This document shows, in pieces, positions 23,563 through 42,476 of a DNA stretch of 55,838 nucleotides. The stretch is from positions 1 to 55,838 of IMG/VR virus record IMGVR_UViG_3300046808_000835; one strand, written 5' to 3'. This stretch comes from a virus. Lineage: Duplodnaviria; Caudoviricetes. Position 1 is the first letter of the stretch, and the number at the start of each line of letters is the position of its first letter. Below the pieces are notes generated by a model that was given only the letters and a program-made list of their open reading frames with translations, made no database searches and was not told the origin of the DNA. The position numbers and the translations under genes were made by a program.

Positions 23563-24321
23563 ATGACTAAAAAATACTCGATTGACTCATTACCACATCA
23601 AGAACTTGTAAAGCTTTCCGACTCACAATTAACTGAGTGGTGTGATACTAATAATGTACACGCCCAACACACCTGGCTGTTGCCACAAATCGTGGCAAGG
23701 ATGTCAAACTGGACACCACAACGAACTGAGGGTCGACTAGACCCATTTGAAACACTTAGACTGGGTTGCGTAACCACACTAGACCAACTGTGCTGGAGGC
23801 TAGCTAGACTGCCCAGAAGTGCGTTAATTAAGGGTCAGGTAGCCAATCCACAGTATTCACAACTGGTACCACTTATACTACTAGCATTCAAGCAACAGTT
23901 TGGGATCATGTATAGTAGTTGGCAAAACTCGCAGCGACTAGATTTAGTGTTAGAACCCAAACTGTATGAAATGGTGAACCTTAGTCTAGAGCAAAGGGAA
24001 GTTGTTAACGGTTTAGGGTCAGAACAACTACTAGAGCTTCGTGATCATGGTTTGTGGAACTCACGAACACAAAAGCTGAAAAGTGCTACTAGTACCTGGG
24101 CACTTAGTCGTGTTGCAGGTACTCCACTAGCCGGCTTACCTAAACTTACACAAACCATTTTAACCCAAATTTGGCTAGCACATCCCACAAAGCGTAACTC
24201 AAACATGATCCTAGATCCACTCAACTGGGATCGTATTCCACCTCCACTAGTTTCACCGGAACCTCTGCTCGAAACCACCACAACCACTACCACCGACACT
24301 TACAAACTGCCATGGCTGTAA
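23563..24321 (+). CDS. T5 D2-like protein
   Basis: PR......Q...P.YS.LVPLIL.AFK.....YS.W and C-terminal LTQIWLA recall T5 D2; followed by a D3-like gene as in T5. Confidence 0.65.
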   Translation: MTKKYSIDSLPHQELVKLSDSQLTEWCDTNNVHAQHTWLLPQIVARMSNWTPQRTEGRLDPFETLRLGCVTTLDQLCWRLARLPRSALIKGQVANPQYSQLVPLILLAFKQQFGIMYSSWQNSQRLDLVLEPKLYEMVNLSLEQREVVNGLGSEQLLELRDHGLWNSRTQKLKSATSTWALSRVAGTPLAGLPKLTQTILTQIWLAHPTKRNSNMILDPLNWDRIPPPLVSPEPLLETTTTTTTDTYKLPWL

Positions 24322-24620
24322 AATATACCAAAGAAATCGTTGAAGAAATTGTTCGTGACTATGAAGCAGGCCGTCCAGTTGCAGAGATTGCACAACAGCT
24401 GGATGTACCTGAACGTAGTGTAATTGCTAAGTTGAGTTCGCTTGGAGTGTACAAGCGCAAGCAATATGTTAACAAAAATGGTGAAGCTCCTGTTAAAAAG
24501 GAGGTTTACATTGGTCGTATCGCTACACTGCTAGATGCCAACATTGAACTCTTAGACTCACTGGAAAAGGTAAACAAGCGAGTGCTTGTTATGCTTATGG
24601 AGGCACTGGAGTCGAAGTAG
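24312..24620 (+). CDS. T5 D3/A2-family DNA-binding protein
   Basis: YT.E....IV.DY.AG..V.EIA......RSVIAKLS..GVY. Confidence 0.7.
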   Translation: MAVKYTKEIVEEIVRDYEAGRPVAEIAQQLDVPERSVIAKLSSLGVYKRKQYVNKNGEAPVKKEVYIGRIATLLDANIELLDSLEKVNKRVLVMLMEALESK

Positions 24621-24678
24621 ATGCGGCTTTTTGCAGCTTACCACAATCAGAATTTTACCCCTATAAATTCGCTCAAGG

Positions 24679-24713
24679 TGCCACAGGTTTAACAACCTGT
24701 GGCATTTTTTTTT
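24679..24713 (+). terminator. Intrinsic terminator ending the early plus-strand unit
   Basis: TGCCACAGGTT-TAAC-AACCTGTGGCA then T9. Confidence 0.9.
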
Positions 24714-24908
24714 GACCCTAAACTGCAACAAATCACAGTTTTGGGTGCCATGTGTCAAATTTTCCACAATTAAACACAATTATTGCAGTTTAGGGTCAAA
24801 CAAACGAAATTAAGTACTTGACACTGACCCTAAACTGTGGTAGTCTGGGTTGGGTGACCAGTGTGTAGAATTTTCGTGGAGTTTTTGCACTGGCGCCGGT
24901 TTAGGGTC
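24711..24908. repeat. GACCCTAAAC motif x4, including an 18-bp perfect inverted pair
   Basis: TTTGACCCTAAACTGCAA 24711-24728 / TTGCAGTTTAGGGTCAAA 24783-24800; further copies at 24825 and 24899. Confidence 0.85.
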
Positions 24909-25003
24909 GAACGCAAGAATTTGCACTGGCGCAAAACACATGCACACACTAGTTTTTGCACTGGCGCAACATTAACGGATTCGTCAAGATTTTGCACTGG
25001 CGC
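24884..25003 (+). repeat. Four direct repeats TTTGCACTGGCGC, period 36/35/36
   Basis: Starts 24884, 24920, 24955, 24991; unique 22-23-nt spacers. Confidence 0.9.
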
Positions 25004-25020
25004 AGCAGGCCAACCAGGTT

Positions 25021-25292
25021 AGTTAGTGCTTACTAACTGCACCAAGTTGGTGCACAGTGCACCAAAACAGTGCATGATTTGTGAGTGGCCGCTAACTTGT
25101 GGTCTATGTGGCGTTTTTGCAACGTCGCAAAAGTTTTACAAAAATTCCCTTGACACCACGGAATTTTATGTGATAAAATTGGCGCGTCAAGTGTTGCATT
25201 TTTGCAACATGTAAAAAGTGAGCGCTCACTTTCAAAAAGTTTTAAAAAAATGCCTGCATTGTTAATGCAGGCATTTAAAAGGGCTTTCGCCC
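25021..25292. promoter_or_regulatory. Cluster of operator-like palindromes
   Basis: AGTTAGTGCTTACTAACT, TGCACCAAGTTGGTGCA, TGCACCAAAACAGTGCA, TTTTGCAACGTCGCAAAA, TGTTGCATTTTTGCAACA, AAAGTGAGCGCTCACTTT, AAATGCCTGCATT-GTT-AATGCAGGCATTT. Confidence 0.7.
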
Positions 25293-25298
25293 CGTTAA

Positions 25299-25628
25299 TT
25301 AAACCGGCTTTGAATTAGCCAGTGCGGTGAAAATCGCTTTAAGAGCCGATTTATTGGCTTTAGTAAGCGAATCAGTATCCGATTCACTCAATTGCAGAAT
25401 CGCGCCAATTGCATCAGCGTGAGCGTCTTTTTTAACAGGCTTTTCGCCAGTTTTAGAAACATACTCTTTTTTCTTATAAACTCCCTCACGCGAGAGTTTA
25501 GCCACAATCGACCGAACCGATTTTCCCATGCGATCAGCGATAGATTCCACGGATTCACCGACCAGATAACCAGCGACGATATCTTGAGTTTGTTCCGGAG
25601 TGTAGTTCACAGTTTTAGTTGCAGCCAT
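25299..25628 (-). CDS. T5 A2-like DNA-binding protein, copy 1
   Basis: MAATKTVNYTPEQT...GKSVRSIVAKLSREGVYKKK...SLTKANKSAL; own promoter TTGGCC-17-TATAAT. Confidence 0.7.
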   Translation of the reverse strand: MAATKTVNYTPEQTQDIVAGYLVGESVESIADRMGKSVRSIVAKLSREGVYKKKEYVSKTGEKPVKKDAHADAIGAILQLSESDTDSLTKANKSALKAIFTALANSKPV

Positions 25629-25886
25629 TTTCAAGCATCCTTTTTGGATTGTATCAGAAAACCCTTTCGGGCGGTTCAGGCTTTGCTTTGTGCTCTGCCC
25701 ATGAAAAGAATTATACAGGAAAACCAACCGGCGGCCAACAACAAAATTTTATATGTATATAGCAAATGGTTATATGCACAAAAACAACAGATACAAAAAA
25801 TTTACAATGTTCTGCTTGACACGGGCAAAATTATAATGATATAATTTTGGCGCGGTTTTTGCTGCACTGCAACATAGAATCCGAAT

Positions 25887-25914
25887 AAAAAAGCCGGATT
25901 ATCTCCGGCTTTTT
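25887..25914. terminator. Bidirectional terminator
   Basis: AAAAAAGCCGGA-TTATC-TCCGGCTTTTT. Confidence 0.8.
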
Positions 25915-25915
25915 G

Positions 25916-26263
25916 TTAATCAATATCCAATTCTGAATAATAAACGTTCGTTAACGCAAAACGCTTTTCCATCTTTTTAGCCAATCGCATAAAGTGTTTA
26001 CCGTGAATTTCAGTTAAACCCTTTTCTGCCTGATAAGCGTGAATCAATTCATGGGCCAAAAGTGTATTAAATTCTCGGTCAAAATCTGAATTACTGCAAA
26101 CATAAAAACGGATTATGTGACGTTTAACTTTGCCATTATCACGCATTTTAGGCCAGTATTCAGCATCATATTCAGACAATTTGCAGAATCTGAATTGTAT
26201 ATCAACCGGCTTTTTAAGTTTTAAAAAACTCACAAAATCGTTTAACAGATTAACGTCAATCAT
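25916..26263 (-). CDS. SprT-like zinc metallopeptidase
   Basis: TLLAHELIHAYQ...HGKHF. Confidence 0.75.
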   Translation of the reverse strand: MIDVNLLNDFVSFLKLKKPVDIQFRFCKLSEYDAEYWPKMRDNGKVKRHIIRFYVCSNSDFDREFNTLLAHELIHAYQAEKGLTEIHGKHFMRLAKKMEKRFALTNVYYSELDID

Positions 26264-26508
26264 TTTTTACCCCAAATTTTAAAGTATAGCATAACATTTA
26301 CAACCCCAAAATTAGCCACATAATTAAAAACTAAGGGCCAATCGTTTCGGTCAATAGTATATATCAACATGAAAACTTCTGCAAAAAACCAGCAAAGCAA
26401 AAATGCCCAGGATAATCCTGCGCTAGATTTATCCTGATAACATTTAACAGCCTGCGGTATTCCACATATTGCAAACAATGTGCTACCGATCCATGCGATT
26501 GCTTCCAT
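26260..26508 (-). CDS. PQ-loop/SemiSWEET-like 3-TM protein
   Basis: IG..LF....IPQA.K....KSS.GLS...L...Y......P...NY. Confidence 0.8.
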   Translation of the reverse strand: MEAIAWIGSTLFAICGIPQAVKCYQDKSSAGLSWAFLLCWFFAEVFMLIYTIDRNDWPLVFNYVANFGVVNVMLYFKIWGKK

Positions 26509-26623
26509 TTTTAAATTACCCTTTCGATTGTGGCAGTTAAAAGAAAACGGTCATTATAATATACCGTTTCAAACCGCTTTGCACTTATTAAGTGCAAAGC
26601 GATAATCAGGCAAATATAGAATC

Positions 26624-27316
26624 TCATTTAGCCGTGAAATTATCTTTTACCTGAAACTTGCGCCAATCATAACGCACCACATTATCCTGCCATTTACGAC
26701 GATTAACAATCTTTTGCAGGATAGGCAATTCAAAATCTCGCGCATCTTCTAATGCGGTATGCGGTTCAGTTTTAAATGAACCAGTAATAAAACCAGCGAC
26801 ACATTCGGCATTGGTTTTAAACGTCATGTTACCGTGTTCTGTCACACGATTAAATGCGTGATTATCAACGCAGAATTGACGATATTTTTTGGAATTGCAG
26901 ATATTACCGACTGCGGCTTGCCACAAACAAAACTTACTATTAAACCCGGAAAGGTCAATACCAGTATTGGCACACTTGTCCGAATCAAACGCTAGATTGT
27001 ATGCGGTAAGCATAGGATTATATTTTGCAACGGCTTGAATAAGCCAGCGATTAATAGCAGACACTGATGCCATAATACGATGGCCGGAATCCAGCATTTC
27101 ATTATAACCCTGCCGCTTTTGCTCGGCATATTCACGCGACCATTCTGCGCGAGAATTGGGAATATAAAAAAGGGATTTAGAATCGAAATGATCTTTTACC
27201 AGTACGGCACACTGATTGAAAATTTCACCGTGACGATCAACGATAACGCAGGCAAAATCAGCCACAGTATCATCAATGGTAGTTTCGGTGTCAATAATCG
27301 CAAAATACTTTTTCAT
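26624..27316 (-). CDS. DEDDh 3'-5' exonuclease
   Basis: IIDTETT, AYNLAFD, HTALEDA; start MKKYF downstream of TTGCAC-17-TATACT. Confidence 0.85.
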   Translation of the reverse strand: MKKYFAIIDTETTIDDTVADFACVIVDRHGEIFNQCAVLVKDHFDSKSLFYIPNSRAEWSREYAEQKRQGYNEMLDSGHRIMASVSAINRWLIQAVAKYNPMLTAYNLAFDSDKCANTGIDLSGFNSKFCLWQAAVGNICNSKKYRQFCVDNHAFNRVTEHGNMTFKTNAECVAGFITGSFKTEPHTALEDARDFELPILQKIVNRRKWQDNVVRYDWRKFQVKDNFTAK

Positions 27317-27617
27317 GGAAAACCTTATACCGGAAAACGCCGGATAGTCGCGTGTGGCAGTGCCGCCACAGAAAAGAGTATACACCCAATCCCAAGACTG
27401 TGCAAGCCAGGCATCATTGAATTTTTCTATCGCGCCCATAGAAAATTTCAATCGGCCAGGGTCTTGACAAACTCAAAATTTTATGGTAAAATTTTGGCGC
27501 CGTGGGTGTTGTAAAAAAACAACACCACAAAAAATTTACAATTTTTTCTTGACACGGCCGAATTTTATATGATAAAATTGGCGCCTCAATTGCCTAAAAA
27601 ATAGGCAATTGAGTTTT

Positions 27618-27788
27618 TTAAATTGTCACAGTATCCTCAACCGTAAAAATTTCAATAGTACTATATCCCAAATCGTATTTTAGCAATTTGCGGTAATCTT
27701 CAAAGATTCTGTCATAATCACAATTTTCTGTGAGAATATCCAATTTGCCGGAATCGTCATCATAAAAACCCACAATGCAATAATTCAT
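27618..27788 (-). CDS. Small acidic hypothetical protein
   Basis: MNYCIVGFYDDD...; starts just after the dmp-like stop. Confidence 0.55.
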   Translation of the reverse strand: MNYCIVGFYDDDSGKLDILTENCDYDRIFEDYRKLLKYDLGYSTIEIFTVEDTVTI

Positions 27789-27789
27789 T

Positions 27790-28263
27790 TCAGTGTCCTT
27801 GAAAACTTGGGCAAAATACTGGTTTGATTTGCGGAAAACGATCACAAACTGCCATCAGATAATCACGATTATCCTCATAAAAAGCCCATTCCGCTTTTTG
27901 GAATTGTGGCAAGTTAAAAAACCGGGCCAATCCGTTTGATTTAAGGGTTTTACCGGATTGTGAATCATTAGGCTTGCGAGAGATAATATAATCAGGCCGA
28001 CCCAAAACCGTATCAATAAAACGTGCATCTGGACGATTAATAACTCGCGCAGTGGCAATAATCACATAAGTATTAGGGCAAAGTAAATCGCGCTTATATT
28101 GATCGGCCAATGGCAAGAGTTTATCCTGCATTGCGCGATACTCATTAGCACGCCAGTATTCTAGATCAATACGTTCCGTGCCGTCCAGATTTTTGATTGT
28201 GCGATACCTGTGCAAACTGTCCACAATAGTACCGTCCATGTCGTACACTTGAACCCGTTTCAT
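27790..28263 (-). CDS. dmp: HAD-family deoxynucleoside 5'-monophosphatase (T5 Dmp-like)
   Basis: RVQVYDMDGTIVDSLHR...IDL..WR...MQDKLLPL...IATAR...FYEDN recalls the T5 Dmp N-terminus. Confidence 0.7.
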   Translation of the reverse strand: MKRVQVYDMDGTIVDSLHRYRTIKNLDGTERIDLEYWRANEYRAMQDKLLPLADQYKRDLLCPNTYVIIATARVINRPDARFIDTVLGRPDYIISRKPNDSQSGKTLKSNGLARFFNLPQFQKAEWAFYEDNRDYLMAVCDRFPQIKPVFCPSFQGH

Positions 28264-28461
28264 CGTTTGTTTTCCGTTGTTTGTTTCCATGAGAGAATTA
28301 TACACGAGCCACACAATCCTGCAAGCAACAAAAAATTATTAGCACATGAAAAAAAGTTGCTTGAGATGCCTTGACACCAGCAAATTATATATGATATAAT
28401 TTTGGCGCCGCAAGTGTGGTAAAAATACCACACTTGACCAGCAGGTTACAGTCTGCTAGGG

Positions 28462-28776
28462 TTAGGCTTGCAACGCCTTGAGAATTGCAGCCAATGCAGA
28501 TTTATTGGCTTTTGTCAAACTTTCGGCATCACTTTCCGACAGTTGCAGGATTGCAGCGATCGCATCAGCCTGAACATCCTTGCTTACCGGACGCTCGCCA
28601 TTTTTGCTAACGTACTCTTTCTTTTTGTACACGCCTTCGCGTGACAGTTTAGCCACAATCGAACGAACCGATTTGCCCATTTCCTGAGCAATAGATTCGA
28701 CAGATTCACCGGCCTGATAATCAGCCACGATTTTCAGGGTTTGCTCTTGCGTGTAGTTTACGGTCTTTTCAGCCAT
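28462..28776 (-). CDS. T5 A2-like DNA-binding protein, copy 2
   Basis: Highly similar to copy 1 (identical MGKSVRSIVAKLSREGVYKKKEYVSK); own promoter TTGCGC-17-TATAAT. Confidence 0.7.
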   Translation of the reverse strand: MAEKTVNYTQEQTLKIVADYQAGESVESIAQEMGKSVRSIVAKLSREGVYKKKEYVSKNGERPVSKDVQADAIAAILQLSESDAESLTKANKSALAAILKALQA

Positions 28777-28993
28777 TTGAAGCACCTTTTAGGTTATAAC
28801 ACAAATTCGATCAGCCCCGCGCCAACCGATAAAAACAATTATACAGAACAGAACCCAGTCGCGCAAGTGTGAAATGTAAAAGGTTTGTGTTGCTTACTTC
28901 CACAAAAAATTTACAATTGACGGCTTGACACCAGCAAATTATATATAGTATAATTTGGCGCCACAAATGCCTAAAAGTTAGGCATTTGTAACT

Positions 28994-29209
28994 TTAAAAA
29001 TTCCAGTTTATGATCGCAATTGAATTTGCTACCAAAAAACTAGCCTGTAAAAATGCTAGGTTATATTGACGGAATCTAACGGCAGTTAAAAAAAGAATTA
29101 TGCTGCTAACAAAAAACAGTGGAATTGCGCCGGTTGGCAGTTTGAATGCCAGCAAAAAACTGCCCACAATTCCAAAACTTACGCCAAAAATTTCCAAGAG
29201 TTTGTTCAT
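28994..29209 (-). CDS. Small multi-TM membrane protein
   Basis: Three hydrophobic segments. Confidence 0.65.
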   Translation of the reverse strand: MNKLLEIFGVSFGIVGSFLLAFKLPTGAIPLFFVSSIILFLTAVRFRQYNLAFLQASFLVANSIAIINWNF

Positions 29210-29598
29210 TATACTTTATCCATTCTGTGATAGCGTTTCGGAGCCAGTCCATAGTTTAGCATGATTTTTTGCCAATTTTTACCGTGTCCGCATTTCTTTT
29301 CACTTTCACCGTACAGGTTAAAATCTACTTGATGGGCCAATTCATGCGGCACAATTTCATGCGACATAATTGTGAGATATTCCGGGCTATGCAGCCAAAA
29401 ATTAATGCCAAATTCAATACGATTGCTTTGTTGAAAACACAATCCTGCGGTAACTTTTAGTCTGCCGTTTAGTTTAATTTCCGGCATTTCAAAATGAGAT
29501 AGTTCAGGATACAGCAATACAAATTTTTGCCAGTGACGCTGGCAAATTGTCCTGACCGTGTTGGTCAGTTCTGTGCGCTGTGATTTTGTGAGAGCCAT
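29209..29598 (-). CDS. SprT-family metallopeptidase
   Basis: RLKVTAG...IVPHELAH...HGKNWQKIM...G..P.RYH. Confidence 0.85.
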   Translation of the reverse strand: MALTKSQRTELTNTVRTICQRHWQKFVLLYPELSHFEMPEIKLNGRLKVTAGLCFQQSNRIEFGINFWLHSPEYLTIMSHEIVPHELAHQVDFNLYGESEKKCGHGKNWQKIMLNYGLAPKRYHRMDKV

Positions 29599-29746
29599 GA
29601 AAAGATTATAGCACAGTGCGACAGGCCAACAAGCAACAAAATTTCATTAGCATATAGCAAAAAGTTGCTTGCAGCCTGTTGACACCAGCAAATTTTATGT
29701 GATAAAATTGGCGCCCGGATTGCCTAAAAATTAGGCAACCTTACTT

Positions 29747-30043
29747 TTAAATGGTAATCTTTTGCGCTGGAAATTGGATTGAACCGTCATATTCTAATTG
29801 GTCGCGCTCATAACTGGTAAGATAATCGTCCTCATGCAAACTCCAATCAATAATCCATTCACGGAAATATTCATTGTCGCATTCAATTTGCGGTTTAGCA
29901 CGCAAAATCAGGTTATGCAATGAAACATAATCGACACGCTGAACATTTTCAATCACATAATCGTTCCCGCCTTTAGCCTTCCAGTAAGGCTTATCGGCAT
30001 CGCCATAGTTTTCCATTACTTGAGTTTCGATCACGATTTTCAT
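29747..30043 (-). CDS. Hypothetical protein
   Basis: KIVIETQ..ENYG.....YWK.KGG..Y. Confidence 0.75.
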   Translation of the reverse strand: MKIVIETQVMENYGDADKPYWKAKGGNDYVIENVQRVDYVSLHNLILRAKPQIECDNEYFREWIIDWSLHEDDYLTSYERDQLEYDGSIQFPAQKITI

Positions 30044-30054
30044 ATAAAACCCTT

Positions 30055-30285
30055 TTAGATATACTCTGACCCGCCGCCATAATCTTCATCAGTACCCCAG
30101 CCTGCGGATGCTAGTGCATCTGAATCATCATTATAGTCCGGTTCTGAATCACTGTCAAGCGGAGCGATTCCGCTTTCGATTGCTTCCATAACCCAAGACT
30201 CGGGAATGTCGAGCCATTTAGCAATCTCGGCCACAGTCATGCCATCTTCAATGCCATCACAGATATTCATTTCAAGATCAGTCAT
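30055..30285 (-). CDS. HTH-like N-terminus with acidic tail
   Basis: DGMTVAEIAKWLDIPESWV...DALASAGWGTDEDYG. Confidence 0.7.
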   Translation of the reverse strand: MTDLEMNICDGIEDGMTVAEIAKWLDIPESWVMEAIESGIAPLDSDSEPDYNDDSDALASAGWGTDEDYGGGSEYI

Positions 30286-30286
30286 T

Positions 30287-30409
30287 TTACTTCCTCACAA
30301 TTTCACGAACAAGGTACACGGAAATGTTATATTTTGCAACCAGTTGCATGATGGTCATGCCCAGTGCATAGTCACGCTCGATCAGGGGAACCGCTTGTTC
30401 TAGACTCAT
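30287..30409 (-). CDS. 40-aa HTH-like peptide
   Basis: MSLEQAVPLIERDYALGMTIMQLVAKYNISVYLVREIVRK; GGAG RBS; TTGTAC-17-TATACT promoter. Confidence 0.6.
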   Translation of the reverse strand: MSLEQAVPLIERDYALGMTIMQLVAKYNISVYLVREIVRK

Positions 30410-30579
30410 TTCATTTGCTCCGTTCAACATGGAAACAGTATAGCATACCGAGCACAGTGTACAAACGACTTTTTGTTATTAGCATATAGCAAAAAATTGC
30501 TTGCAGCCTGTTGACACGCACAAAAATCATATGATATAATTTGGCGCGTCAAGTGTGGTATTTTTACCACACTTGAATT

Positions 30580-30669
30580 TCATTTAATGAACCTGAACAG
30601 AATCCAACATTTTACCACGAAAATTGCAGCCACTACACCGGTGGCCACAATAATTTCACAATTAGTCAT
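30580..30669 (-). CDS. 29-aa single-TM peptide
   Basis: MTNCEIIVATGVVAAIFVVKCWILFRFIK; GAGG RBS. Confidence 0.45.
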   Translation of the reverse strand: MTNCEIIVATGVVAAIFVVKCWILFRFIK

Positions 30670-30952
30670 AGTATACCTCAGAGTTACGATCCAGCCATTC
30701 TACATATTCTTCCTGAATTGAGTCATACTCTTGCTCATGGAAACGCTCTTCCATTTGTCGCAGAACATCATCAGGAAAACCTTCTTCAGCATAACGCTCA
30801 TCCAGCCATTCTGGCTGGGTTTCCGTCCAAGAATCAAACATAAACTCAAGATGGCTCAGCCATTTTTTGCTAGATTCGTCAGAGTAGCAAGGCTCTTCAT
30901 AATCATAGCGTGAATCATAGTAATAACTTTCAGGGGTTTCGACGATCTTCAT
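30662..30952 (-). CDS. Highly acidic protein
   Basis: About 29/96 D+E; promoter TTGACA-17-TATAAT. Confidence 0.75.
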   Translation of the reverse strand: MKIVETPESYYYDSRYDYEEPCYSDESSKKWLSHLEFMFDSWTETQPEWLDERYAEEGFPDDVLRQMEERFHEQEYDSIQEEYVEWLDRNSEVYYD

Positions 30953-31031
30953 GTTTGCTTCCTTGTTTCAATGTGTCTATTATACAGGAACCAGTTGCTG
31001 TGTCAACAGGTTCCTGTGTCAACATTGTAAA

Positions 31032-31184
31032 TTAATAGCGTGATTCTGCAAGTTCACGCAGTTCACGGTTAGCATCTTCCCTGTCCTGCTCAAAGCATTC
31101 TTCCAGAATCTTTTGGGTATCGTCAAAGAACCCATCATCATAGAAGTCCTCGCAGGTCACAGCACAATCAAAATCGTCAAACAT
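31032..31184 (-). CDS. Highly acidic 50-aa protein
   Basis: MFDDFDCAVTCEDFYDDGFFDDTQKILEECFEQDREDANRELRELAESRY; AGGAGG RBS; own promoter; not in ORF track. Confidence 0.7.
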   Translation of the reverse strand: MFDDFDCAVTCEDFYDDGFFDDTQKILEECFEQDREDANRELRELAESRY

Positions 31185-31255
31185 CACAACCTCCTGTTAA
31201 TGTATAAACATTATATCATGCAATCCTGGGCCATGCAAGCCCAGGATTTTTATTG

Positions 31256-31579
31256 TTACGCTGCGATCCACTCCTGCTCATCACGGAACAGCAAACCTTC
31301 TGAACCATCATATTCATCCATCACAAACTGCCTACCTTCACGCACCCACAGCACGCCCAGATCATCCATGTTGCCATCCCAACGATAGGTGTCCCACAGG
31401 TAGTCCGTCAGGGCATCCGTACCCAAACCGTTTTCCATGTTTTCCAGTGATGCAGCAACCACCGGGTCAAACATGGCTTGCATACGATACTCACGGTCAA
31501 GCCCTGTCGAGAAGCCACGACCGTAGTCGTTGGTCAGTACCACAGCCACAAAACCGTCACGCTTCAATTTGGCAACCAT
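31256..31579 (-). CDS. Hypothetical phage protein
   Basis: VAVV....YG.GFST...MFDP...F..DEYDGSE; AGGAG RBS; TTGCAC-17-TATACT promoter. Confidence 0.8.
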   Translation of the reverse strand: MVAKLKRDGFVAVVLTNDYGRGFSTGLDREYRMQAMFDPVVAASLENMENGLGTDALTDYLWDTYRWDGNMDDLGVLWVREGRQFVMDEYDGSEGLLFRDEQEWIAA

Positions 31580-31641
31580 CACAATCTCCTGTTAACGTGT
31601 GAACAGTATAGCACAGCCATAGATTTGTGCAAGCATTTTTC

Positions 31642-31688
31642 GATTGTATTTTTCTATTGCGTTTTCGGGTTGATAGAAAAATACAATC
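31642..31688. repeat. 16-bp perfect inverted repeat at the pre-early/late boundary
   Basis: GATTGTATTTTTCTAT / ATAGAAAAATACAATC. Confidence 0.8.
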
Positions 31689-31819
31689 ACGAAAATACTT
31701 GACAACAGGGGGGTTATGGGACATAATGAATGATTGTGTGCTGATCACCCACACACACGTAAATCATGAAAAACAAAACCAAAACCCTCACGGTGCCATC
31801 ACCCTAATAAAAAACACAC

Positions 31820-31848
31820 TTGCCATACATGCATAACCATGTTATACT
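31820..31848 (+). promoter_or_regulatory. Promoter for terminase genes
   Basis: TTGCCA-17-TATACT. Confidence 0.7.
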
Positions 31849-31872
31849 GTAAAAAATTTCTCGAGGAATACA

Positions 31873-32367
31873 ATGCTGCCCCAAACCAATCCCGCCGAGG
31901 CACTGCAAATACAGCCAGAACAATTGGAAATAGCCAATTGTTATTTACAATGTGGAAGTGTGGCCGAAACTGCCGACAATCTACAACTGTCACCCGAAAC
32001 CGTAGCAAACACACTCCAGCTGCCACATGTCAGAGCGTACACAGCTCAGCTATTCATGGAAACTGGCTTTGCAAATCGTCACACTATCCGTCGCGCCATG
32101 GACGCTGTCATACGCCAAAAACTGCAAGAACTGCATGAGTCAGAAACTGGATCCAACAAAGACATTGCCGACCTACTGTTACTATCACATAAAATGTCTA
32201 TGGATATTTTAGATCGCGAACTGCAACTGGCCAAACTGCAGCAGCAGGTAACTGAGAGTCAGGTCAAAACACAAACCAACATACAAATTAACGGTGGTTT
32301 AACAGACAACACACAGTATGCTAAACTAATTCAACAGTTACTGGAACGAGATGCTGGAGATAAGTAA
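31873..32367 (+). CDS. terS: Terminase small subunit (T5-like)
   Basis: PE.LEIAN.YL..G...F..TG..NR...I..KL.E..E...GS.KDI.DLL; directly upstream of TerL. Confidence 0.8.
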   Translation: MLPQTNPAEALQIQPEQLEIANCYLQCGSVAETADNLQLSPETVANTLQLPHVRAYTAQLFMETGFANRHTIRRAMDAVIRQKLQELHESETGSNKDIADLLLLSHKMSMDILDRELQLAKLQQQVTESQVKTQTNIQINGGLTDNTQYAKLIQQLLERDAGDK

Positions 32368-33640
32368 ACCTGATATACATGGCGACTACTTAATAAACTA
32401 TTCAGCATCTAGTCGTTTTTTAAAGCTGCCAGTACAACCTTACCTAGAACTGCTCGGTATCTACGACTCGCTCAATCGCCCACAGTGTGCACTAATCAAT
32501 GCAATTAACAGTCCACAGTATCGTTTTGTGGTAGCTGCACTAGCCAGACGATTAGGCAAAACTTATATAGCCAATGTGTGTGGTCAACTGGTCAACTTAA
32601 TGCCTGGGTCGAATGTATTGATCATGAGCCCTAACTTTAGTTTAAGCTCTATTAGTTTTGAACTGCAACGACGACTAATCAATCACTTTGACCTAGAAGT
32701 TGCACGTGACAACTTAAAAGACCGATTAATTGAACTTTCAAATGGTTCAACTATTCGTATGGGTTCGATTTCAACTGTTGATAGTTGCGTTGGCCGATCG
32801 TATGATTTAATTATATTTGATGAAGCCGCACTTAGTTCGGCTGGCGAAGCTGCTTTTAATGTAGCATTACGACCCACACTAGACAAGCCCAACTCAAAGT
32901 GTGTGTTTATTTCAACTCCTCGTGGCCGATTAAACTGGTTTTCACAGTTTTATGATCGTGGTTGGAGTAGTCAGTTTCCTGAGTGGATCTCACTACGTGC
33001 AGACTATTCAGAAAATGCTAGAATGAGCGTTAGTGATGTTGAAGAAGCCAAACGTACCTTAAGTTCGGCTGAGTTTGAACAAGAGTATCGTGCCAGTTTT
33101 ACAGTATTTCAAGGGCAAATATATTCGTTTGATCGTGAGCGTTCTGTTTCGGAACCACCACCCGACCTACGCGGTGAGTTTATAGCTGGCTGCGACCCTG
33201 GCTATCGTGATGCTACCGCTTATGTGGTGGTGTGTTATGAACCCAGTACAGATTGTTTTTGGGTAGTAGATGAATATGTTGAAAGTGGGGTGCCTACATC
33301 ACAACATGCTAGTCATTTTCAAACACTTAATTCGCGCTGGGGTGTAGAAACTGTGTTTATTGATTCTGCAGCAGCACAATTTGCAGCTGACTTAGCTTAT
33401 CAGTACAACCTAGCAACTACTCGTGCTCGCAAAGATGTACTACCAGGTATCGCCTACGTGCAAAACTTAATTGAAAATAACCGACTTCGTGTTGCACCCA
33501 ACTGTACTCATACACTAGCCATGTTAGACCAATATCGTTGGGATACCGGCACTGCTCTACAGCGTGAAAGACCTGTACATGATTCTCACTCGCACATTGC
33601 TGACGCACTGCGTTACTGTTTGTATAGTTATACAGTCTAG
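32351..33640 (+). CDS. terL: Terminase large subunit
   Basis: Walker A ARRLGKT, Walker B LIIFDEAA, ISTPRG, nuclease GCDPG...DSA...HIADALRY. Confidence 0.95.
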   Translation: MLEISKPDIHGDYLINYSASSRFLKLPVQPYLELLGIYDSLNRPQCALINAINSPQYRFVVAALARRLGKTYIANVCGQLVNLMPGSNVLIMSPNFSLSSISFELQRRLINHFDLEVARDNLKDRLIELSNGSTIRMGSISTVDSCVGRSYDLIIFDEAALSSAGEAAFNVALRPTLDKPNSKCVFISTPRGRLNWFSQFYDRGWSSQFPEWISLRADYSENARMSVSDVEEAKRTLSSAEFEQEYRASFTVFQGQIYSFDRERSVSEPPPDLRGEFIAGCDPGYRDATAYVVVCYEPSTDCFWVVDEYVESGVPTSQHASHFQTLNSRWGVETVFIDSAAAQFAADLAYQYNLATTRARKDVLPGIAYVQNLIENNRLRVAPNCTHTLAMLDQYRWDTGTALQRERPVHDSHSHIADALRYCLYSYTV

Positions 33641-33715
33641 GTAGCTAAAATTTTGTGTTGCGTGTTTGTTGCTGACCTGATATAATAGCTCTAGAATTGT
33701 GAAAAATCATGCAAT

Positions 33716-34141
33716 ATGGCAATTAATACTAATAAACGGATCCCTGTAAAATGGGTCCGTGACAAAGCAAAACGGGCTTACGAAAAGCAAGCGCATTGTT
33801 ATGTGTGCGGTACCGCTAGCAATTTAGAGCTACATCACCTGCATTCTGTTACTTATTTACTAGATACCTGGGCTGCTGCTCATGGTTATGATATAAGTAC
33901 TGATTCGGGGATCTTAGCTGTAAGAGATGAATTTATTCAAGAACATCATGCCGAGCTATATGAGCAGGTTTATACCTTATGTAACCCTCATCATGTAGCA
34001 CTACATCAAGTTTACGGTAAAAGTCCAGCTCCTAGTTCAGTGCCAAAGCAAGCTCGTTGGATTGAGCGTCAGCGTGATAAACATAACGGTGTTGCAGCGG
34101 AAAAAAAGCCTGGTATTTCATTTTTTGGTGATTTACTATAA
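33716..34141 (+). CDS. HNH nicking endonuclease (T5 Sci-like)
   Basis: VKWVRDKAK..Y.K...C.VCG....LELHH...TLC..HH..LH.VYG; between terL and portal as in T5; own TTGCGT-17-TATAAT promoter. Confidence 0.8.
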   Translation: MAINTNKRIPVKWVRDKAKRAYEKQAHCYVCGTASNLELHHLHSVTYLLDTWAAAHGYDISTDSGILAVRDEFIQEHHAELYEQVYTLCNPHHVALHQVYGKSPAPSSVPKQARWIERQRDKHNGVAAEKKPGISFFGDLL

Positions 34142-34153
34142 GGCAAAAACACC

Positions 34154-35332
34154 ATGAGCATTGTAAAAAATATTGGCAGCTGGATGCGTGAAAAACTTAA
34201 TCCAGCCCAGAGTCGTATTTATGTTGATACTGGCACAGATGTTTCAACATCAGCAAATTTAAACTATCAAAAAAGCTTTGACACACTAGATTCGGTCAAT
34301 CGCGGAGTTAACTTAATTGTTAGTGCTTGCAGCGGTTTAGATTATGATATTCGTGACAGTGTGTCAGAACCAGTTTATGCTGGTATGCGTAAAAAGCAAC
34401 TAAACACATTACTAAACTTTAGACCTAACCCTTATCAGAGTGCACAAGATTTTCGTCAGAACCTTTTTACTGACTTTTTGTTAGAAGGCAACTGCTTTGT
34501 GTACTTTGATGGTGCACACCTTTATCATTTACCAGCACAGCAAGTAGATATCTTACCAGATGACCGCACATTTATTCGTGGTTACAAGTATGGATCTGAT
34601 GTAGACTTTAAGCCGTCAGAAGTATTTAGTTTTCGCGACTTAAGCAGTGATTCTATTTATCGTGGCGATAGCCGACTGCAAAGTGTTATTTCAAGCGTTC
34701 GCACACTACAATCAATGGGCGAACTGCAACAAAACTTCTTTGATAATGGTGCTGTGTTTGGCACTGTGTTGACCACAGACAATACACTATCGCAGGCTGC
34801 AAAAGATCGTACAATTGAGGGTTGGCTGCAAAAGTACAACCCACGCAAAGGTTTACGCAAGCCAGTTATCTTAGACAGTGGCTTAAAGCCTTTTCAACTT
34901 ACACAAGCCAGTTTCCGCGACATGGACTTTGATGCTGCTATCCGCACACATTCAGAGCGTGTATTAACTGCACTAGGTGTACCACCTATTTTATTAGCAG
35001 GCGGAAATAACGCAAATATTTCGCCTAACTTACGGCTTTTTTACTTAGAAACTGTGTTACCAATCGTTCGTCGCTATACCAGTGCGATTGAGCGGTTTTT
35101 TGGCTATGACGTAGAAGCGGTCACTGCTAGTGTGAGTGCACTACAACCCGAACTAAAAGACATAGCTGCTTATCATGCTACCCTAGTTAATGGTGGCATT
35201 ATTAGTCCTAACGAAGCTCGCGTTGAGCTGCGTTATCCACCCAAAACAGGGCATGACGACTTACGGATTCCTGCTAATATTGCTGGAAGTGCTAGCAATC
35301 CTAGCGTAGGCGGACGCCCAGAACAAGAGTGA
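34154..35332 (+). CDS. Portal protein
   Basis: LLN.RPNPYQ, FF.NGA, LGVPP.LL.GGNNANI.PN, I.PNEAR, IPANIAGSA. Confidence 0.95.
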   Translation: MSIVKNIGSWMREKLNPAQSRIYVDTGTDVSTSANLNYQKSFDTLDSVNRGVNLIVSACSGLDYDIRDSVSEPVYAGMRKKQLNTLLNFRPNPYQSAQDFRQNLFTDFLLEGNCFVYFDGAHLYHLPAQQVDILPDDRTFIRGYKYGSDVDFKPSEVFSFRDLSSDSIYRGDSRLQSVISSVRTLQSMGELQQNFFDNGAVFGTVLTTDNTLSQAAKDRTIEGWLQKYNPRKGLRKPVILDSGLKPFQLTQASFRDMDFDAAIRTHSERVLTALGVPPILLAGGNNANISPNLRLFYLETVLPIVRRYTSAIERFFGYDVEAVTASVSALQPELKDIAAYHATLVNGGIISPNEARVELRYPPKTGHDDLRIPANIAGSASNPSVGGRPEQE

Positions 35333-35338
35333 GGTTGT

Positions 35339-37285
35339 ATGGTAGACCGCAATCAAATGCTGTATTTAAACAGCACAGTTACCAAAGCCGAGCCCTCTAA
35401 TCCTGATGATGACAGTTTAGTTATTAGTGGTTACGCAAGTACCGTAGATGCAGACCGTCATGGTGATGTGGTAAGTAGTGCTGCTTGGCAGCGTGGTTTG
35501 AATAACTACTTGAAAAATCCTATTATTCTAGCATTTCATAATCATTCAATGCCTATCGGTCGTATGGTAGAGCATAGAATTGATGAGCGTGGTTTGTGGA
35601 TTAAAGCTCGTATTTCTAAAGCCGCTTCCGCAGTTTATGAATTGGTAAAAGACGGCATTTTAAGCGCATTCAGTATCGGATTCAGAGTTGTTGATGCTGA
35701 GTATAATCAATTAACAGAACTATTTGTTGTAAAAGAACTGGAACTGCATGAAATTAGCGTTGTAAGCGTCCCAGCAAATCAAGAAACACTATTTAGTTTA
35801 GCAAAAGCGTTTGACACTCACTCCGAGTACAAACAGTTTAAGTTGCAATTTGCACCCGAAAGCGAATCAGCTAAAGGGCTAGAATCCTCAGTGGAAGCAA
35901 ATAGCATATCAATTAGTAAGGAATGGAATATGACTCCAGAAGAAATGAAACAAGCAATGGTTGATGCTGCTCGCCAAGCCGCCGAGGAAGCTGCTAAGGC
36001 AGTTGTAGCCGAGCAACAGAAAGCCGCCCAAGCCCTGGCTGCCCAACAGCAAGCCGAGCGTGACTTAGAAGCCAAGATCAAAGCTGCCGTTAGCGCAACT
36101 GTTGAGACTGGTGTTAGCGGTGCAGAGAAGCTGCTTGCTGAAGTTGAGAAGCGTTTTGCTGAACAAGCTGAGCAAAGCAAGAGCGCAATCGCTGGTTTAG
36201 AAGCTGCTCTCAAAGAGAAAGCTGCTGAACTCGAAGCAATTCAGAAGAGCAAGATGCAGTTTAGCGACAAGAGCGGTGACACCGTTTCTTATTCCGACAA
36301 AGAGAAAGCTGTTCTGTTAGCTCGCATGAGCAAGAAAAGCATTCTTGAGACCAAAGTTGGTCGTGAGCTTGTACAAAAGTACGGTGCACACGTTCCTTCA
36401 GCCACTTGGGAACTCGAAGTTTCTACTAACCTAGAAAACGAAGTTCGTCAGCGTTTAGTTGTAGCACCTACAATGCGTGCTATCACAATGCAAACCAATG
36501 TAATGACAATTCCTGTTAATCCAGAGTCTGGTGTTGCAACCTGGGTTCAGAATGCTAACTTTGGTGCAGCTGCTAGTGCTGGTAACAATGCTACACACGC
36601 ACTTAAAGAAATCACTCTTAATGCATACAAAGTTGCTACCAATGAGTACGTAGCCTTCGAAGAAGAAGAAGACGCTCTGTTAGCAATTATGCCTGTTATC
36701 CGTGATGGCATGATCCGTCGTGTTGCTCGCGCTGTAGATCGCGCTTTCTTACGCGGTGCCGGTGCTGGTGCTGATCCTGTTAAAGGTATCGGTACATACG
36801 ACGCAGCCAGTGCTGTAAACCTCGATATCGACGGTGCTACACTTGCTGCTGGCAGCTATGCCAAAACCACAGTTGCTACCCTGCGCGATATGCGTAAAGA
36901 TCTAGGCGTATGGGGTCTTGATCCTAGCGAGCTAGTTTACATTGTTTCTACCGATGTATATTACGAGTTGCTCGAAGACACCAACTTCTTAACAGTTGAC
37001 AAAGTTGGTGATCGTGCCACAATCTTAACCGGTCAAATCGGCTCTGTTGCTAATACACCAGTATTAGTAAGCGGCGAGTTTGATGCTAAGGGTGCTGGTG
37101 CCATGGCTGCTGTTTGCTTTGCACCTGCTAACTTCTTGGTTGGCAATCAGCGCGGTCTCCGTGTTGACACCGATGACTTGATCGAGACACAGCGTCGCGT
37201 AATGGTTGCAAGCCTGCGCACTGGTCTTACACAAGTTACCACAAACTACGGTCAGGGCGTAAGCACCTTACGTTACGTAGCTTAA
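35339..37285 (+). CDS. Fused HK97 prohead protease / major capsid protein
   Basis: ISGYAS...DRHGD...ILAFHNH..PIG...FSIGF...EISVVSVPANQ, then coiled-coil delta domain and HK97 fold; in-frame ATG at 35930 with AAGGA RBS. Confidence 0.92.
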   Translation: MVDRNQMLYLNSTVTKAEPSNPDDDSLVISGYASTVDADRHGDVVSSAAWQRGLNNYLKNPIILAFHNHSMPIGRMVEHRIDERGLWIKARISKAASAVYELVKDGILSAFSIGFRVVDAEYNQLTELFVVKELELHEISVVSVPANQETLFSLAKAFDTHSEYKQFKLQFAPESESAKGLESSVEANSISISKEWNMTPEEMKQAMVDAARQAAEEAAKAVVAEQQKAAQALAAQQQAERDLEAKIKAAVSATVETGVSGAEKLLAEVEKRFAEQAEQSKSAIAGLEAALKEKAAELEAIQKSKMQFSDKSGDTVSYSDKEKAVLLARMSKKSILETKVGRELVQKYGAHVPSATWELEVSTNLENEVRQRLVVAPTMRAITMQTNVMTIPVNPESGVATWVQNANFGAAASAGNNATHALKEITLNAYKVATNEYVAFEEEEDALLAIMPVIRDGMIRRVARAVDRAFLRGAGAGADPVKGIGTYDAASAVNLDIDGATLAAGSYAKTTVATLRDMRKDLGVWGLDPSELVYIVSTDVYYELLEDTNFLTVDKVGDRATILTGQIGSVANTPVLVSGEFDAKGAGAMAAVCFAPANFLVGNQRGLRVDTDDLIETQRRVMVASLRTGLTQVTTNYGQGVSTLRYVA

Positions 37286-37308
37286 TATTCTCAGGGATGG
37301 GAAGGGGG

Positions 37309-37334
37309 GATGGGGCCTTCGGGCCCCGTCTTTT
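37309..37334 (+). terminator. Terminator after the capsid gene
   Basis: GATGGGGCC-TTCG-GGCCCCGTC then TTTT. Confidence 0.8.
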
Positions 37335-37384
37335 AAAGCAGATTGATAAGTATGCTTTAAAAGACGGTTTTGCTAGGAGTGGAC

Positions 37385-42457: not shown

Positions 42458-42476
42458 GGCTTTTTTGTGTTTTGGT

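Follow-up and report, generated by a model that had tools for sequence, protein, structure and literature searches.

An AGCT-free module beside the terminase genes of a T5-like phage most likely reflects avoidance of host restriction

The window analysed here, a 55,838-base stretch of DNA from a distant T5-like freshwater phage, contains a zone of 7379 bases (~7.4 kb, positions 24639-32017, 13% of the window) that lacks the word AGCT, most likely so that a host restriction enzyme cannot cut the DNA that is exposed first. The zone is a leftward-transcribed module beside the gene for the small terminase subunit (terS), and it probably holds the genes that the phage switches on first. We consider it probable that sites of an AGCT-cutting host system have been avoided in a pre-early, probably first-exposed module that is the counterpart of the first-step-transfer, or terminal-repeat, DNA of T5.

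The gap is bordered by AGCT sites at 24635-24638 on the left and 32018-32021 on the right, the same limits as in an earlier note on this DNA, which had described the word as absent between them and abundant elsewhere. The window holds 292 AGCT compared with a mean of 307 (sd 16.5) in 100 dinucleotide-preserving shuffles, so the word is not rare window-wide. From the density of the remaining window 44.5 AGCT are expected in the zone, from its base composition alone 26.5, from a first-order model 19.5 and from a second-order Markov model of the segment itself 17.3 (P = 3e-8), while none is present. Measured against this Markov expectation, as the earlier note had suggested, AGCT is thus not at its expected frequency. 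Synonymous-codon shuffles within the segment's own genes (4611 coding bases, n = 2000) give 13.8 ± 3.2 AGCT with a minimum of 5, and recoding the same proteins with late-gene codon usage gives 24.5 ± 4.5. The word is missing from this coding part and also from ~2.8 kb of non-coding DNA. In a longest-gap test over all 136 reverse-complement 4-mer classes, AGCT is the most extreme word (log10 P ~ -14.3, runner-up ~ -7.7), and the neighbours of AGCT at one mismatch are at or above expectation in the zone, which identifies the exact word as what the zone has lost.

These counts bear on the possibility that there was no site-specific selection and that the gap is a by-product of composition or codon usage, or of the module having been acquired recently from a source poor in AGCT. 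The composition of the module does differ strongly: ACTA, CTAG and GTAC are rarer than in the flanks by a factor of 3-4, yet equal to their in-segment Markov expectation, and ~60% of the contrast in AGCT between zone and flanks is a general difference in composition that is common to the T5 terminal repeat (25 versus 58.4 AGCT), where the same cause would apply. However, the expectation is still 13.8-17.3 AGCT under nulls that keep the trinucleotides of the segment, or its proteins and codon usage, with 0/2000 shuffles below 5, and the terS-proximal part (30401-32017), which is compositionally unlike the core, is likewise AGCT-free (6.5 expected). A by-product is already disfavoured by the Markov null, the codon shuffles and the one-mismatch neighbours, and we regard it as very improbable.

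The landmarks of the zone and its borders are listed in Table 1. Within the repeat block, nine TTWTNCACA-like sites (one exact and eight with one mismatch) fall at 24751-25169, and the bin 24501-25000 is the densest in DnaA-box-like words of the window's 500-base bins. The position of the block matches the injection stop region of T5, and a corresponding function may be suggested from this position. The two helix-turn-helix proteins are paralogues (289-base direct repeat D1, 71% identity), and BLASTP finds no similarity between the one at 28462-28776 and T5 A2. The protein encoded at 26624-27316 has no sequence match in Pfam or PDB; its AlphaFold2 model (11 sequences, pLDDT 89.3) has as top Foldseek matches the DnaQ domain, REXO2/Orn, RNase T and ExoI (E 3.5e-5 to 1e-3, TM 0.45-0.52), and D9, E11, D111, H186 and D191 are invariant. 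The six ORFs nearest terS match no Pfam family above cut-off, and 29747-30043 alone among them has a homologue in the loci of 17 relatives at E 1e-4. Five of the six are very acidic (pI 4.05-4.49, net charge -9 to -21), and the six could be candidates for an anti-restriction role. Each of the eight promoters is followed by GGCGCC or GGCGCG and then by a stable hairpin (z -2.0 to -5.8; for seven of the eight, 0/200 shuffles fold as well), an arrangement present in 17/17 relatives.

Table 1. Annotated features in and around the AGCT-free zone
Feature	Position	Strand	Basis or detail
Terminator-like hairpin, end of rightward operon stopping at 24620	24675-24708	+	15-pair stem, then T run
Repeat block, non-coding (direct repeats, inverted repeats, DnaA-box-like words)	24707-25250	.	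Families D8, D11, D13; inverted repeat I2
Helix-turn-helix protein, 109 aa	25299-25628	-	PHROG DNA-binding families; weak Pfam HTH matches
SprT-like metalloprotease-like protein, 115 aa	25916-26263	-	PF10263, E 1.4e-5, 25.3 bits (just missing cut-off of 25.6)
PQ-loop small membrane protein, 82 aa	26260-26508	-	Pfam PF04193, E 2.4e-12, 46.9 bits
Predicted DEDDh (DnaQ-like) 3'-5' exonuclease fold, 230 aa	26624-27316	-	AlphaFold2 and Foldseek
Small acidic ORF, start uncertain	27618-27845	-	ORF list; pI 4.26; no Pfam family
Homologue of T5 pre-early Dmp (deoxynucleoside-5'-monophosphatase), 157 aa	27790-28263	-	BLASTP
Helix-turn-helix protein, 104 aa	28462-28776	-	PHROG and Pfam HTH matches
Small membrane protein, weakly PnuC-like, 71 aa	28994-29209	-	PF04973, E 4.5e-5, 23.9 bits (below cut-off of 27.3)
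SprT-like metalloprotease-like protein, 129 aa	29209-29598	-	Pfam PF10263, E 2.6e-10, 40.6 bits
Six small terS-nearest ORFs	29747-31582	-	29747-30043, 30055-30285, 30287-30430, 30662-30952, 31032-31187, 31256-31582
Eight consensus sigma-70-type promoters, opposite strand to genes	25150-30540	+	11-12 of 12 hexamer matches; repeat families D2-D6
Positions of the eight promoters	25150-25179, 25816-25845, 27464-27492, 27549-27578, 28371-28400, 28925-28954, 29679-29708, 30511-30540	+	
Small terminase subunit (terS)	31873-32367	+	PHROG 3802, E 2e-34
Large terminase subunit (terL), T5-like	32351-33640	+	PHROG 2; tblastn

Homology, promoters, codon usage and composition establish the module as pre-early in nature, and the earlier note's matching of the gap to the repeat block and pre-early genes is thereby upheld. 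The Dmp homologue shares 33% identity with T5 Dmp over 86 aa (E 5e-12, DxDGT motif included), and dmp adjoins terS/terL in T5, My1, vB_ValS_X1, PSTCR5 and JSF10, as in the present phage, whose terL has Demerecviridae terminases (45-48% identity) as all of the best 25 tblastn matches listed. Codon usage in the module is host-like: the share of TTA among leucine codons is 0.09, as against 0.48 in late genes, and codons that tRNAs of the phage itself decode are under-represented. The tetranucleotide contrast between the segment and the rest correlates with that between the T5 terminal repeat and the rest of T5 (rho 0.59, p 4e-14), compared with rho <= 0.08 in 23 control windows. A tetranucleotide classifier trained solely on the T5 terminal repeat, with AGCT excluded from the score, is positive within the window at 24501-30500 only. 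Positive values of this score are confined in My1 to the exact terminal repeat of 12,854 bases, in a further three cultured Demerecviridae to DNA next to dmp, and in two near-complete uncultured relatives to the module.

The edges of the gap are step-like, with 5 AGCT/kb in each of the three preceding 1-kb bins, 0 in seven and then 7-8/kb, the first site past the gap lying 145 bases inside terS. The core (25299-30400) has none of 11.6 expected sites, but only 0.2-2.5 are expected in the 660 bases at the left end (24639-25298, repeat block), which are therefore not significant alone, nor are the final ~435 bases individually. The zone sequence is recovered in contigs from four public freshwater-metagenome runs (two samples, two studies), and none of the six variants listed among these contigs makes an AGCT. 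We infer that the limits of the zone may approximate a terminal repeat, as the earlier note had proposed. The same restriction pressure could instead have acted on an early-expressed or leading zone in a phage with no terminal repeat and no two-step transfer, so that the limits would say nothing about genome ends. This is consistent with the weak outer parts of the gap and with the depth of assembled contigs, the only material of the depth check, which span the right edge unchanged (18.2 versus 18.4 in one run, 14.3 versus 13.2 in another) and give no terminal-repeat doubling; DNA from infected cells would give single depth too. It also agrees with the lack of A1 and A2, on which second-step transfer depends in T5: among 17 T5 pre-early proteins used as tblastn queries Dmp alone was found, and homologues of A1 and A2 are missing from the window and from two relatives 96% and 93% complete. 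The T5 mechanism is therefore not simply transferable to the present phage. T7-like phages, moreover, are reported to avoid leading-region sites without long repeats (PMC12455610). We nonetheless think this variant unlikely, given that the terminase is T5-like, that the composition score is positive solely in the terminal repeat of My1 and, here, solely in the zone, and that a repeat block with DnaA-box-like words lies at the inner end, the site of the T5 stop signal.

Restriction as the cause is further supported by the modules of 17 uncultured relatives, which are depleted of palindromes that vary by lineage (AGCT, GGCC, CCGG, GATC and TTAA) and whose counts in the late genes of these loci match expectation. 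Two depletion tests were passed by 14/272 palindromic 4-mers versus 18/2040 non-palindromes (odds ratio 6.1, p 5e-6, across loci that are not independent lineages). This lineage-specific loss fits restriction pressure. Against this reading, the overall depletion of AGCT itself in the relatives' modules is modest (182 observed versus 279 Markov-expected), the word is among the three most depleted in 4/17, and the AGCT-free stretches of the relatives cover part of the module only. The five cultured Demerecviridae named above have no comparable 4-mer gap, so it is not a general family trait.

An unannotated pre-early protein might itself be, or direct, an AGCT-specific endonuclease that starts the breakdown of host DNA; pre-early DNA would then be AGCT-free because the enzyme is present in the cell at the same time, and the rest would arrive after shut-off. 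Such an idea was proposed for T5 A1 by Davison (bioRxiv 10.1101/866236), and the escape of T5 DNA from its own DNase is still stated as an open question (10.64898/2026.04.02.716235). The module also has a host-DNA-catabolism set consisting of the predicted DEDDh exonuclease fold, Dmp and two small transporter-like membrane proteins, an exonuclease requires ends as starting points, and AGCT is low in most relatives' modules against a flank-based expectation (182 versus 489). However, PHROG and Pfam searches find no restriction-endonuclease-like, HNH or GIY-YIG domain in any module ORF. Relatives miss different palindromes, some of them several (both AGCT and GGCC in L007), which variable host systems fit better, and L051 and L065 have the same core genes yet normal AGCT (20 versus 25.1 and 18 versus 26.4 expected). 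In the T5 terminal repeat the depletion of 4-mers goes no further than p ~4e-5, and the depleted words do not include AGCT. Self-inflicted cutting therefore seems to us improbable.

Under avoidance of host restriction, host RNA polymerase would read the module first, and the DNA of the module would probably be exposed in the cell first. A cut there would be fatal to the infection, coming before any counter-defence has been produced, and selection by an AGCT-cutting host system, presumably of AluI-type specificity, may have purged the word from coding and non-coding DNA of the zone. The other ~100 kb would retain its 4.6-7.5 AGCT sites per kb through later entry or through protection by module products. 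The earlier note had proposed that the gap marks the segment exposed before defences are disabled. This is partly supported: the pre-early module and the palindrome loss in relatives speak for it, and a host enzyme as selective agent and first entry of the zone are plausible. The note's suggestion of a methylation-dependent system found no support. In that case the phage would methylate its own AGCT, and lacking the word would spare first-exposed DNA from a methylation-dependent (Type IV) nuclease of the host. This would account for a region-limited absence, and AGCT methylation (m4C) is described in freshwater microbes, in a Lake Biwa Thaumarchaeota bin (PMC6329791). However, the methyltransferase families PF00145, PF01555 and PF02086 are unmatched in the window (~53% of a genome) and in four relatives (two at least 93% complete), and we judge it extremely improbable.

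Phages generally avoid Type II palindromes genome-wide. The present case is alike in that a short palindrome falls below its Markov expectation, but the avoidance extends over 13% of the window only, and elsewhere AGCT is as frequent as shuffles predict. Genome-wide avoidance is mentioned in PMC8594841. A likeness is also found in T7-like phages (Murciavirus / Mme2I), where only motifs in the leading region are reported to matter for restriction and this first-entering region is highly variable (PMC12455610); in the present phage, similarly, the ORFs closest to what is presumed to be the leading end are acidic and unique to the phage. That system concerns a Type I bipartite motif in a podovirus and is experimental, whereas ours concerns a 4-base palindrome in a T5-like siphovirus, inferred from sequence.

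The closest comparison is with T5. T5-like phages are reported, from experiments, to be restricted only via sites in first-step-transfer DNA (PMC10644984), and the T5 terminal repeat lacks 33/64 six-base palindromes compared with 21.7 ± 3.3 elsewhere in T5, both of which bear out the earlier note's statement that this DNA is poor in restriction sites. The terminal repeat and two-step transfer of T5 are both putative in the present phage. A1, which all 227 Demerecviridae genomes of one analysis are reported to carry (10.64898/2026.04.02.716235), and A2 are missing here, and eight DnaA boxes are described for T5-like phages (10.1101/866236) against one exact box here. The first-step-transfer DNA of T5 and other Tequintavirus members and the present module share a Dmp gene, sigma-70-type promoters, missing restriction-type words and a tetranucleotide signature, and in both phages the module adjoins the terminase genes and has a non-coding repeat block at its far end. 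Unlike in T5, the module genes of the present phage all run in one direction with consensus promoters facing them, and one 4-base word is lost entirely over 7.4 kb.

The word AGCT is not rare across the window overall, since its 292 occurrences in 55,838 bases lie near the mean of dinucleotide-preserving shuffles (307, sd 16.5, n=100). Between the neighboring sites at 24635-24638 and 32018-32021, however, 7379 bases contain none. These are the bounding sites named in the earlier note, and counting upholds its claim that AGCT is absent from 24639-32017 and abundant elsewhere, with zero observed against 13.8-44.5 expected. The higher value derives from flank density (44.5); base composition predicts 26.5 sites, a first-order model 19.5 and a second-order Markov model of the segment itself 17.3 (P = 3e-8). 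Synonymous-codon shuffling among the segment's own genes, which preserves the proteins and the segment codon usage, gives 13.8 +/- 3.2 sites over 4611 coding bases, with a minimum of 5 in 2000 shuffles, and recoding the segment proteins with late-gene codon usage gives 24.5 +/- 4.5. The segment is also three- to fourfold poorer in ACTA, CTAG and GTAC, whose counts nevertheless equal its Markov expectation. The contrast with the flanks owes much to composition, which puts the fair null at about 14-17 sites rather than 44. That composition alone produces the gap is nonetheless highly improbable, as the codon-aware and Markov nulls still expect AGCT sites.

The absence is specific to the word and sharply bounded. 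The earlier note had proposed counting 4-mers against Markov expectation, and this count bears it out: beside the zero against 17.3, a longest-gap test over 136 reverse-complement 4-mer classes finds AGCT the most extreme (log10 P about -14.3; runner-up -7.7), and the six classes one mismatch from AGCT occur at or above expectation. AGCT density is steplike at the edges, passing from 5 per kb to seven empty 1-kb bins and then to 7-8 per kb. The outer parts of the gap contribute little weight (expected sites: 0.2-2.5 in the left 660 bases, 11.6 in the core at 25299-30400 and 6.5 in 30401-32017). Thirty-two of the 64 six-base palindromes are missing from the zone (non-overlapping windows miss 19-27); AGCT itself occurs in four of the 32, which leaves little effect beyond that word. 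The sequence is also found in contigs of four public freshwater-metagenome runs (two samples, two studies), and none of the six listed variants among the run contigs creates an AGCT. The gap sequence is no assembly oddity, and the AGCT gap is real and highly non-random.

The window is the entire assembly and is rated 53% of a genome by CheckV. Within it, the zone consists of two parts, a non-coding repeat block and fifteen small genes, every one on the minus strand, whose features are collected in the table together with those of the surrounding DNA.

Features of the AGCT-free zone and of the rest of the window
Feature	Position	Strand	Remark
Permuted tmRNA, betaproteobacterial type	2331-2710	-	upstream of zone, with ten tRNA genes; Rfam RF01850 90.8 bits, RF04321 116 bits
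Rubrerythrin gene	6572-7024	-	early region
UvdE-type UV endonuclease gene	11765-12757	-	early region; Pfam E 1.6e-40
ThyX-like thymidylate synthase gene	14462-15415	+	early region
End of rightward operon	stop 24620	+	bounds zone on left
Terminator-like hairpin	24675-24708		after rightward operon
Non-coding repeat block	about 24707-25250		550 bases; left part of zone
Eight sigma-70-type promoters	25150-30540	+	facing the minus-strand pre-early genes
Two paralogous helix-turn-helix proteins		-	module
Two SprT-like proteins		-	module
PQ-loop membrane protein	26260-26508	-	
DnaQ-like DEDDh exonuclease fold, 230 aa	26624-27316	-	predicted structure, pLDDT 89
Homologue of T5 pre-early Dmp, 157 aa	27790-28263	-	E 5e-12
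Small membrane protein, weakly PnuC-like	28994-29209	-	
Five very acidic small ORFs			pI about 4; beside terS; no homologue in relatives' loci
Small terminase gene terS	31873-32367		right neighbor of module
Portal gene			downstream of terminase
Protease/major-head-protein fusion, 648 aa	35339-37285	+	downstream of terminase
Major tail protein gene			downstream of terminase
2373-aa ORF, tape-measure position			downstream; assigned from size and position
CATG-free stretch, 5.7 kb	42495-48185	+	inside 2373-aa ORF; log10 P about -4.8

The model of the 230-aa protein matched a DnaQ domain, REXO2, RNase T and ExoI in Foldseek, and residues D9, E11, D111, H186 and D191 of this protein are invariant. 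A PDB sequence search with the exonuclease-like and Dmp-like proteins returned nothing significant, the ESM Atlas gave no usable feature match and only below-threshold structure matches for two acidic ORFs, Rfam on 24000-32500 (E <= 1) gave just two sRNA matches, both sub-threshold, and nothing in the phage collection matched 24000-33000 by megablast.

We note that the PQ-loop and PnuC-like proteins sit beside the DEDDh exonuclease fold and Dmp. T5 is reported to degrade host DNA to nucleosides and export them, and the exonuclease, Dmp and small transporter-like proteins suggest a compact set for host-DNA degradation to nucleosides and their export that does without A1. Inside the zone, the contigs from the four runs are broken or divergent: loose ends lie at 26721, 26767 and 25216, and a weak joint, present in a single contig with 23 letters on its shorter side and left out of account, skips 27589-30077. 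Of the 80 related contigs, 15 stop no more than about 560 bases upstream of terL. Strain variation seems to be concentrated in the pre-early module.

The earlier note placed the gap on the repeat block plus pre-early genes, and several lines of evidence agree with that placement: the block is present, and a Dmp homologue, promoters, codon usage and a T5-like composition point the same way. The Dmp homologue is 33% identical to T5 Dmp over 86 aa, with a reciprocal tblastn match, and was the sole match when 17 T5 pre-early proteins were searched by tblastn (E <= 0.1) against the window and two near-complete uncultured relatives, G1 (96% complete) and G2 (93% complete). A1 and A2 were not found in this sequence-level search of the three, BLASTP of a module helix-turn-helix protein against T5 A2 showed no similarity, and metallophosphatase matches in relatives fall outside the module. 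Position is also comparable. The start of terS lies 291 bases past the last module gene, dmp and terL are 1.3-4.6 kb apart in the cultured Demerecviridae My1, vB_ValS_X1, PSTCR5 and JSF10, and the T5 right repeat starts 3.1 kb past terS, with a non-coding injection-stop region at its end. Promoter-like sites are abundant in the region (56, against 21.8 +/- 3.5 in shuffles). TTA makes up 0.09 of Leu codons in the segment genes and 0.48 in the late genes, and the segment makes sparing use of the codons that the phage's own tRNAs read (Leu-TAA, Leu-TAG, Ser-GCT and others), as expected of genes translated before phage tRNAs exist.

The composition of the segment resembles that of the T5 terminal repeat. 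Tetranucleotide log-ratios of segment to rest correlate with those of the T5 repeat to the rest of T5 (Spearman rho 0.59, p 4e-14; 0.58 without AGCT), against rho <= 0.08 for 23 other 7.4-kb windows of the contig. A T5-trained tetranucleotide score, run with AGCT set to zero and counting positive stretches of at least 2 kb, is positive in the window at 24501-30500 only. In My1 it is positive only at 1-6750 and 8251-10750, both within its terminal repeat, which was verified as exact over 12,854 bases; it is positive only beside dmp in the other three cultured phages, and only in the homologous module in the two near-complete uncultured relatives. Nine TTWTNCACA sites, allowing up to one mismatch, fall in the repeat block at 24751-25169, and no 500-base bin of the window is richer in DnaA-box-like words than 24501-25000. 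A single one of these nine is exact, and across the window exact boxes occur at chance level, so the likeness to the T5 stop signal is weak.

The eight promoters within the zone that face the minus-strand genes are near-perfect, with TTGACA, 17-18-base spacing and TATAAT or TAAAAT, and an extended TG in six. Within about 10 bases after each comes GGCGCC or GGCGCG with a stable hairpin, some of the hairpins having a T run; the stems vary in sequence and keep their shape. All 17 relatives with a homologous module carry 1-7 such promoters in the module span on the same strand (more with flanks); on the strand of the genes they are few or absent. Possible roles are the production of short RNAs, a roadblock to polymerase, or shut-off of pre-early genes.

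A 4-base palindrome is the classic form of a Type II site, and AGCT is missing from coding and non-coding DNA alike. Given a palindromic word, intact neighbors and sharp edges, restriction avoidance is the best reading. Indeed, the short palindrome falls below both Markov and codon-aware expectation with its neighbors unaffected, and relatives, although not independent loci, avoid different palindromes. Tequintaviruses are reported to resist Type I and II systems unless sites lie in first-step-transfer DNA (PMC10644984), and PMC12455610 reports a similar rule for the leading region in T7-like phages. The T5 repeat lacks 33 of the 64 six-base palindromes, while 37 other T5 windows lack 21.7 +/- 3.3 (maximum 30); this, like the report on Tequintaviruses, agrees with the statement of the earlier note that T5 first-step-transfer DNA is depleted of restriction sites. 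The gap marks a T5-like pre-early module, and avoidance of restriction sites in DNA that is probably exposed first is its probable explanation.

The methylation-dependent variant put forward in the earlier note found no support. Its proposed check for phage methyltransferases came back empty, with none of the DNA methyltransferase families PF00145, PF01555 and PF02086 in the window or four relatives, so that phage-encoded methylation of these kinds does not protect the later DNA. AGCT methylation is described in freshwater microbes (PMC6329791), in a record for an archaeal bin that has no bearing on the host of this phage. The tmRNA of the window carries the tag ANDEVYALAA according to ARAGORN, and its betaproteobacterial type may be a hint to the host lineage.

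Related loci extend the pattern to other palindromes. Eighty were collected from IMG/VR (terL 59-72% identical), of which 17 hold at least 2.5 kb of homologous module. Their modules contain 182 AGCT; the remainder of each locus predicts 489 and the module Markov model 279. This modest Markov depletion means that clade-wide AGCT poverty is largely compositional. Ranked by Markov p-value, AGCT is among the top three words in four modules and first in none. Depletion at p < 0.01 against both nulls was found in 14 of 272 tests of palindromes and 18 of 2040 of non-palindromes (Fisher p 5e-6, with an odds ratio of 6.1; several loci are close relatives and so not independent). AGCT is depleted in L007, L035, L061 and L077, GGCC in L007, L011 and L076 (whose expectation the recurrent GGCGCC motif may inflate), CCGG in L024, GATC in L024, L046 and L077, and TTAA in L051, L065 and L067. 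In the late genes of those loci the depleted words occur about as often as expected, and the most depleted word is a palindrome in nine of the 17 modules versus three of the 17 late-gene sets. AGCT sites of relatives aligned to the exonuclease-like and dmp genes of the window are too few to be informative (eight, two synonymous and six not). AGCT is specifically purged in some lineages only, and varying palindromes in one module fit varying host restriction systems.

The same loci bear on a self-immunity explanation, by which an unannotated pre-early protein would be an AGCT-directed nuclease that starts host-DNA destruction, with the co-resident DNA kept AGCT-free. Davison proposed such 'restriction enzyme' self-immunity for T5 A1 (10.1101/866236), and how T5 DNA escapes A1 is stated to be still open (10.64898/2026.04.02.716235). 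A host-DNA-disposal theme is plausible in view of the exonuclease, Dmp and the transporter-like proteins; however, no endonuclease domain was found in the module ORFs, relatives lack different palindromes and some lack several, and L051 and L065 hold the same core genes with normal AGCT. We consider this explanation improbable; if true, it would be Davison's answer to T5-type sparing of the phage's own DNA, in a lineage without A1.

Contig depth bears on the earlier note's prediction that the gap gives the terminal-repeat limits. Assembled contigs bridge the right edge, for example 27549-35888 at depth 18.2 (flank contig 18.4) and 29227-35888 at 14.3 (13.2). Their depth is not doubled, which argues against a second copy in the sampled runs, although DNA under replication inside infected cells would give the same picture. 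The unchanged depth is consistent with a leading region under restriction pressure that has neither terminal repeat nor two-step transfer. Given the likeness of the zone to T5 pre-early DNA and to the My1 terminal repeat, we regard this version as less likely, and restriction-site avoidance in a T5-like pre-early module remains our preferred reading.

Elsewhere in the window, one ORF matches both head-maturation-protease and major-head-protein families, which are separate genes in T5. The CATG-free stretch has a counterpart in one relative (G002), where a similar 6.0-kb gap spans 36721-42686. Auxiliary genes of the early region encode the UV endonuclease, rubrerythrin and thymidylate synthase.

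The step-edged absence of a restriction word, together with a composition signature transferred from T5, provides a computational marker that delimits pre-early DNA in uncultured T5-like phages and also reads out the specificity of the defence that their hosts probably carry. The rest of the genome holds hundreds of AGCT; therefore, if our reading is right, this lineage protects its later DNA as T5 does. That it would do so without A1 and A2 narrows the search for the T5-type protection function, for which the SprT-like proteins, the acidic leading ORFs and the helix-turn-helix proteins are candidates.

The zone is enriched in GCGC (28 vs 11.4) and CGCG (17 vs 7.9), and the T5 terminal repeat far more so (55 vs 9.0 and 29 vs 6.8); the T5 record notes a nick consensus PuGCGC. 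Possible nick sites are the GGCGCC motifs after each antisense promoter and the block's TGCACTGGCGC repeats. By analogy with the T5 nicks we also considered AGCT as part of a phage nick site, and rejected this because GCGC is enriched, not depleted, in both the T5 repeat and the zone.

The terL product is 45-48% identical to those of T5-like phages, and the best 25 matches listed are all Demerecviridae. With regard to membership in that family, terL is T5-like whereas the A1 hallmark, reported in all 227 Demerecviridae genomes analysed (10.64898/2026.04.02.716235), was not found here; judged by these sequences, the phage is best described as a distant T5-like lineage. T5, My1, vB_ValS_X1, PSTCR5 and JSF10 have no comparable 4-mer gap (best log10 P -2.8 to -5.4), none of their best gaps is a palindrome gap in pre-early DNA, and AGCT in the T5 repeat is not depleted against Markov expectation. 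The AGCT gap is an unusually clean new case of a known phenomenon, in an uncultured T5-like lineage without A1 and A2.
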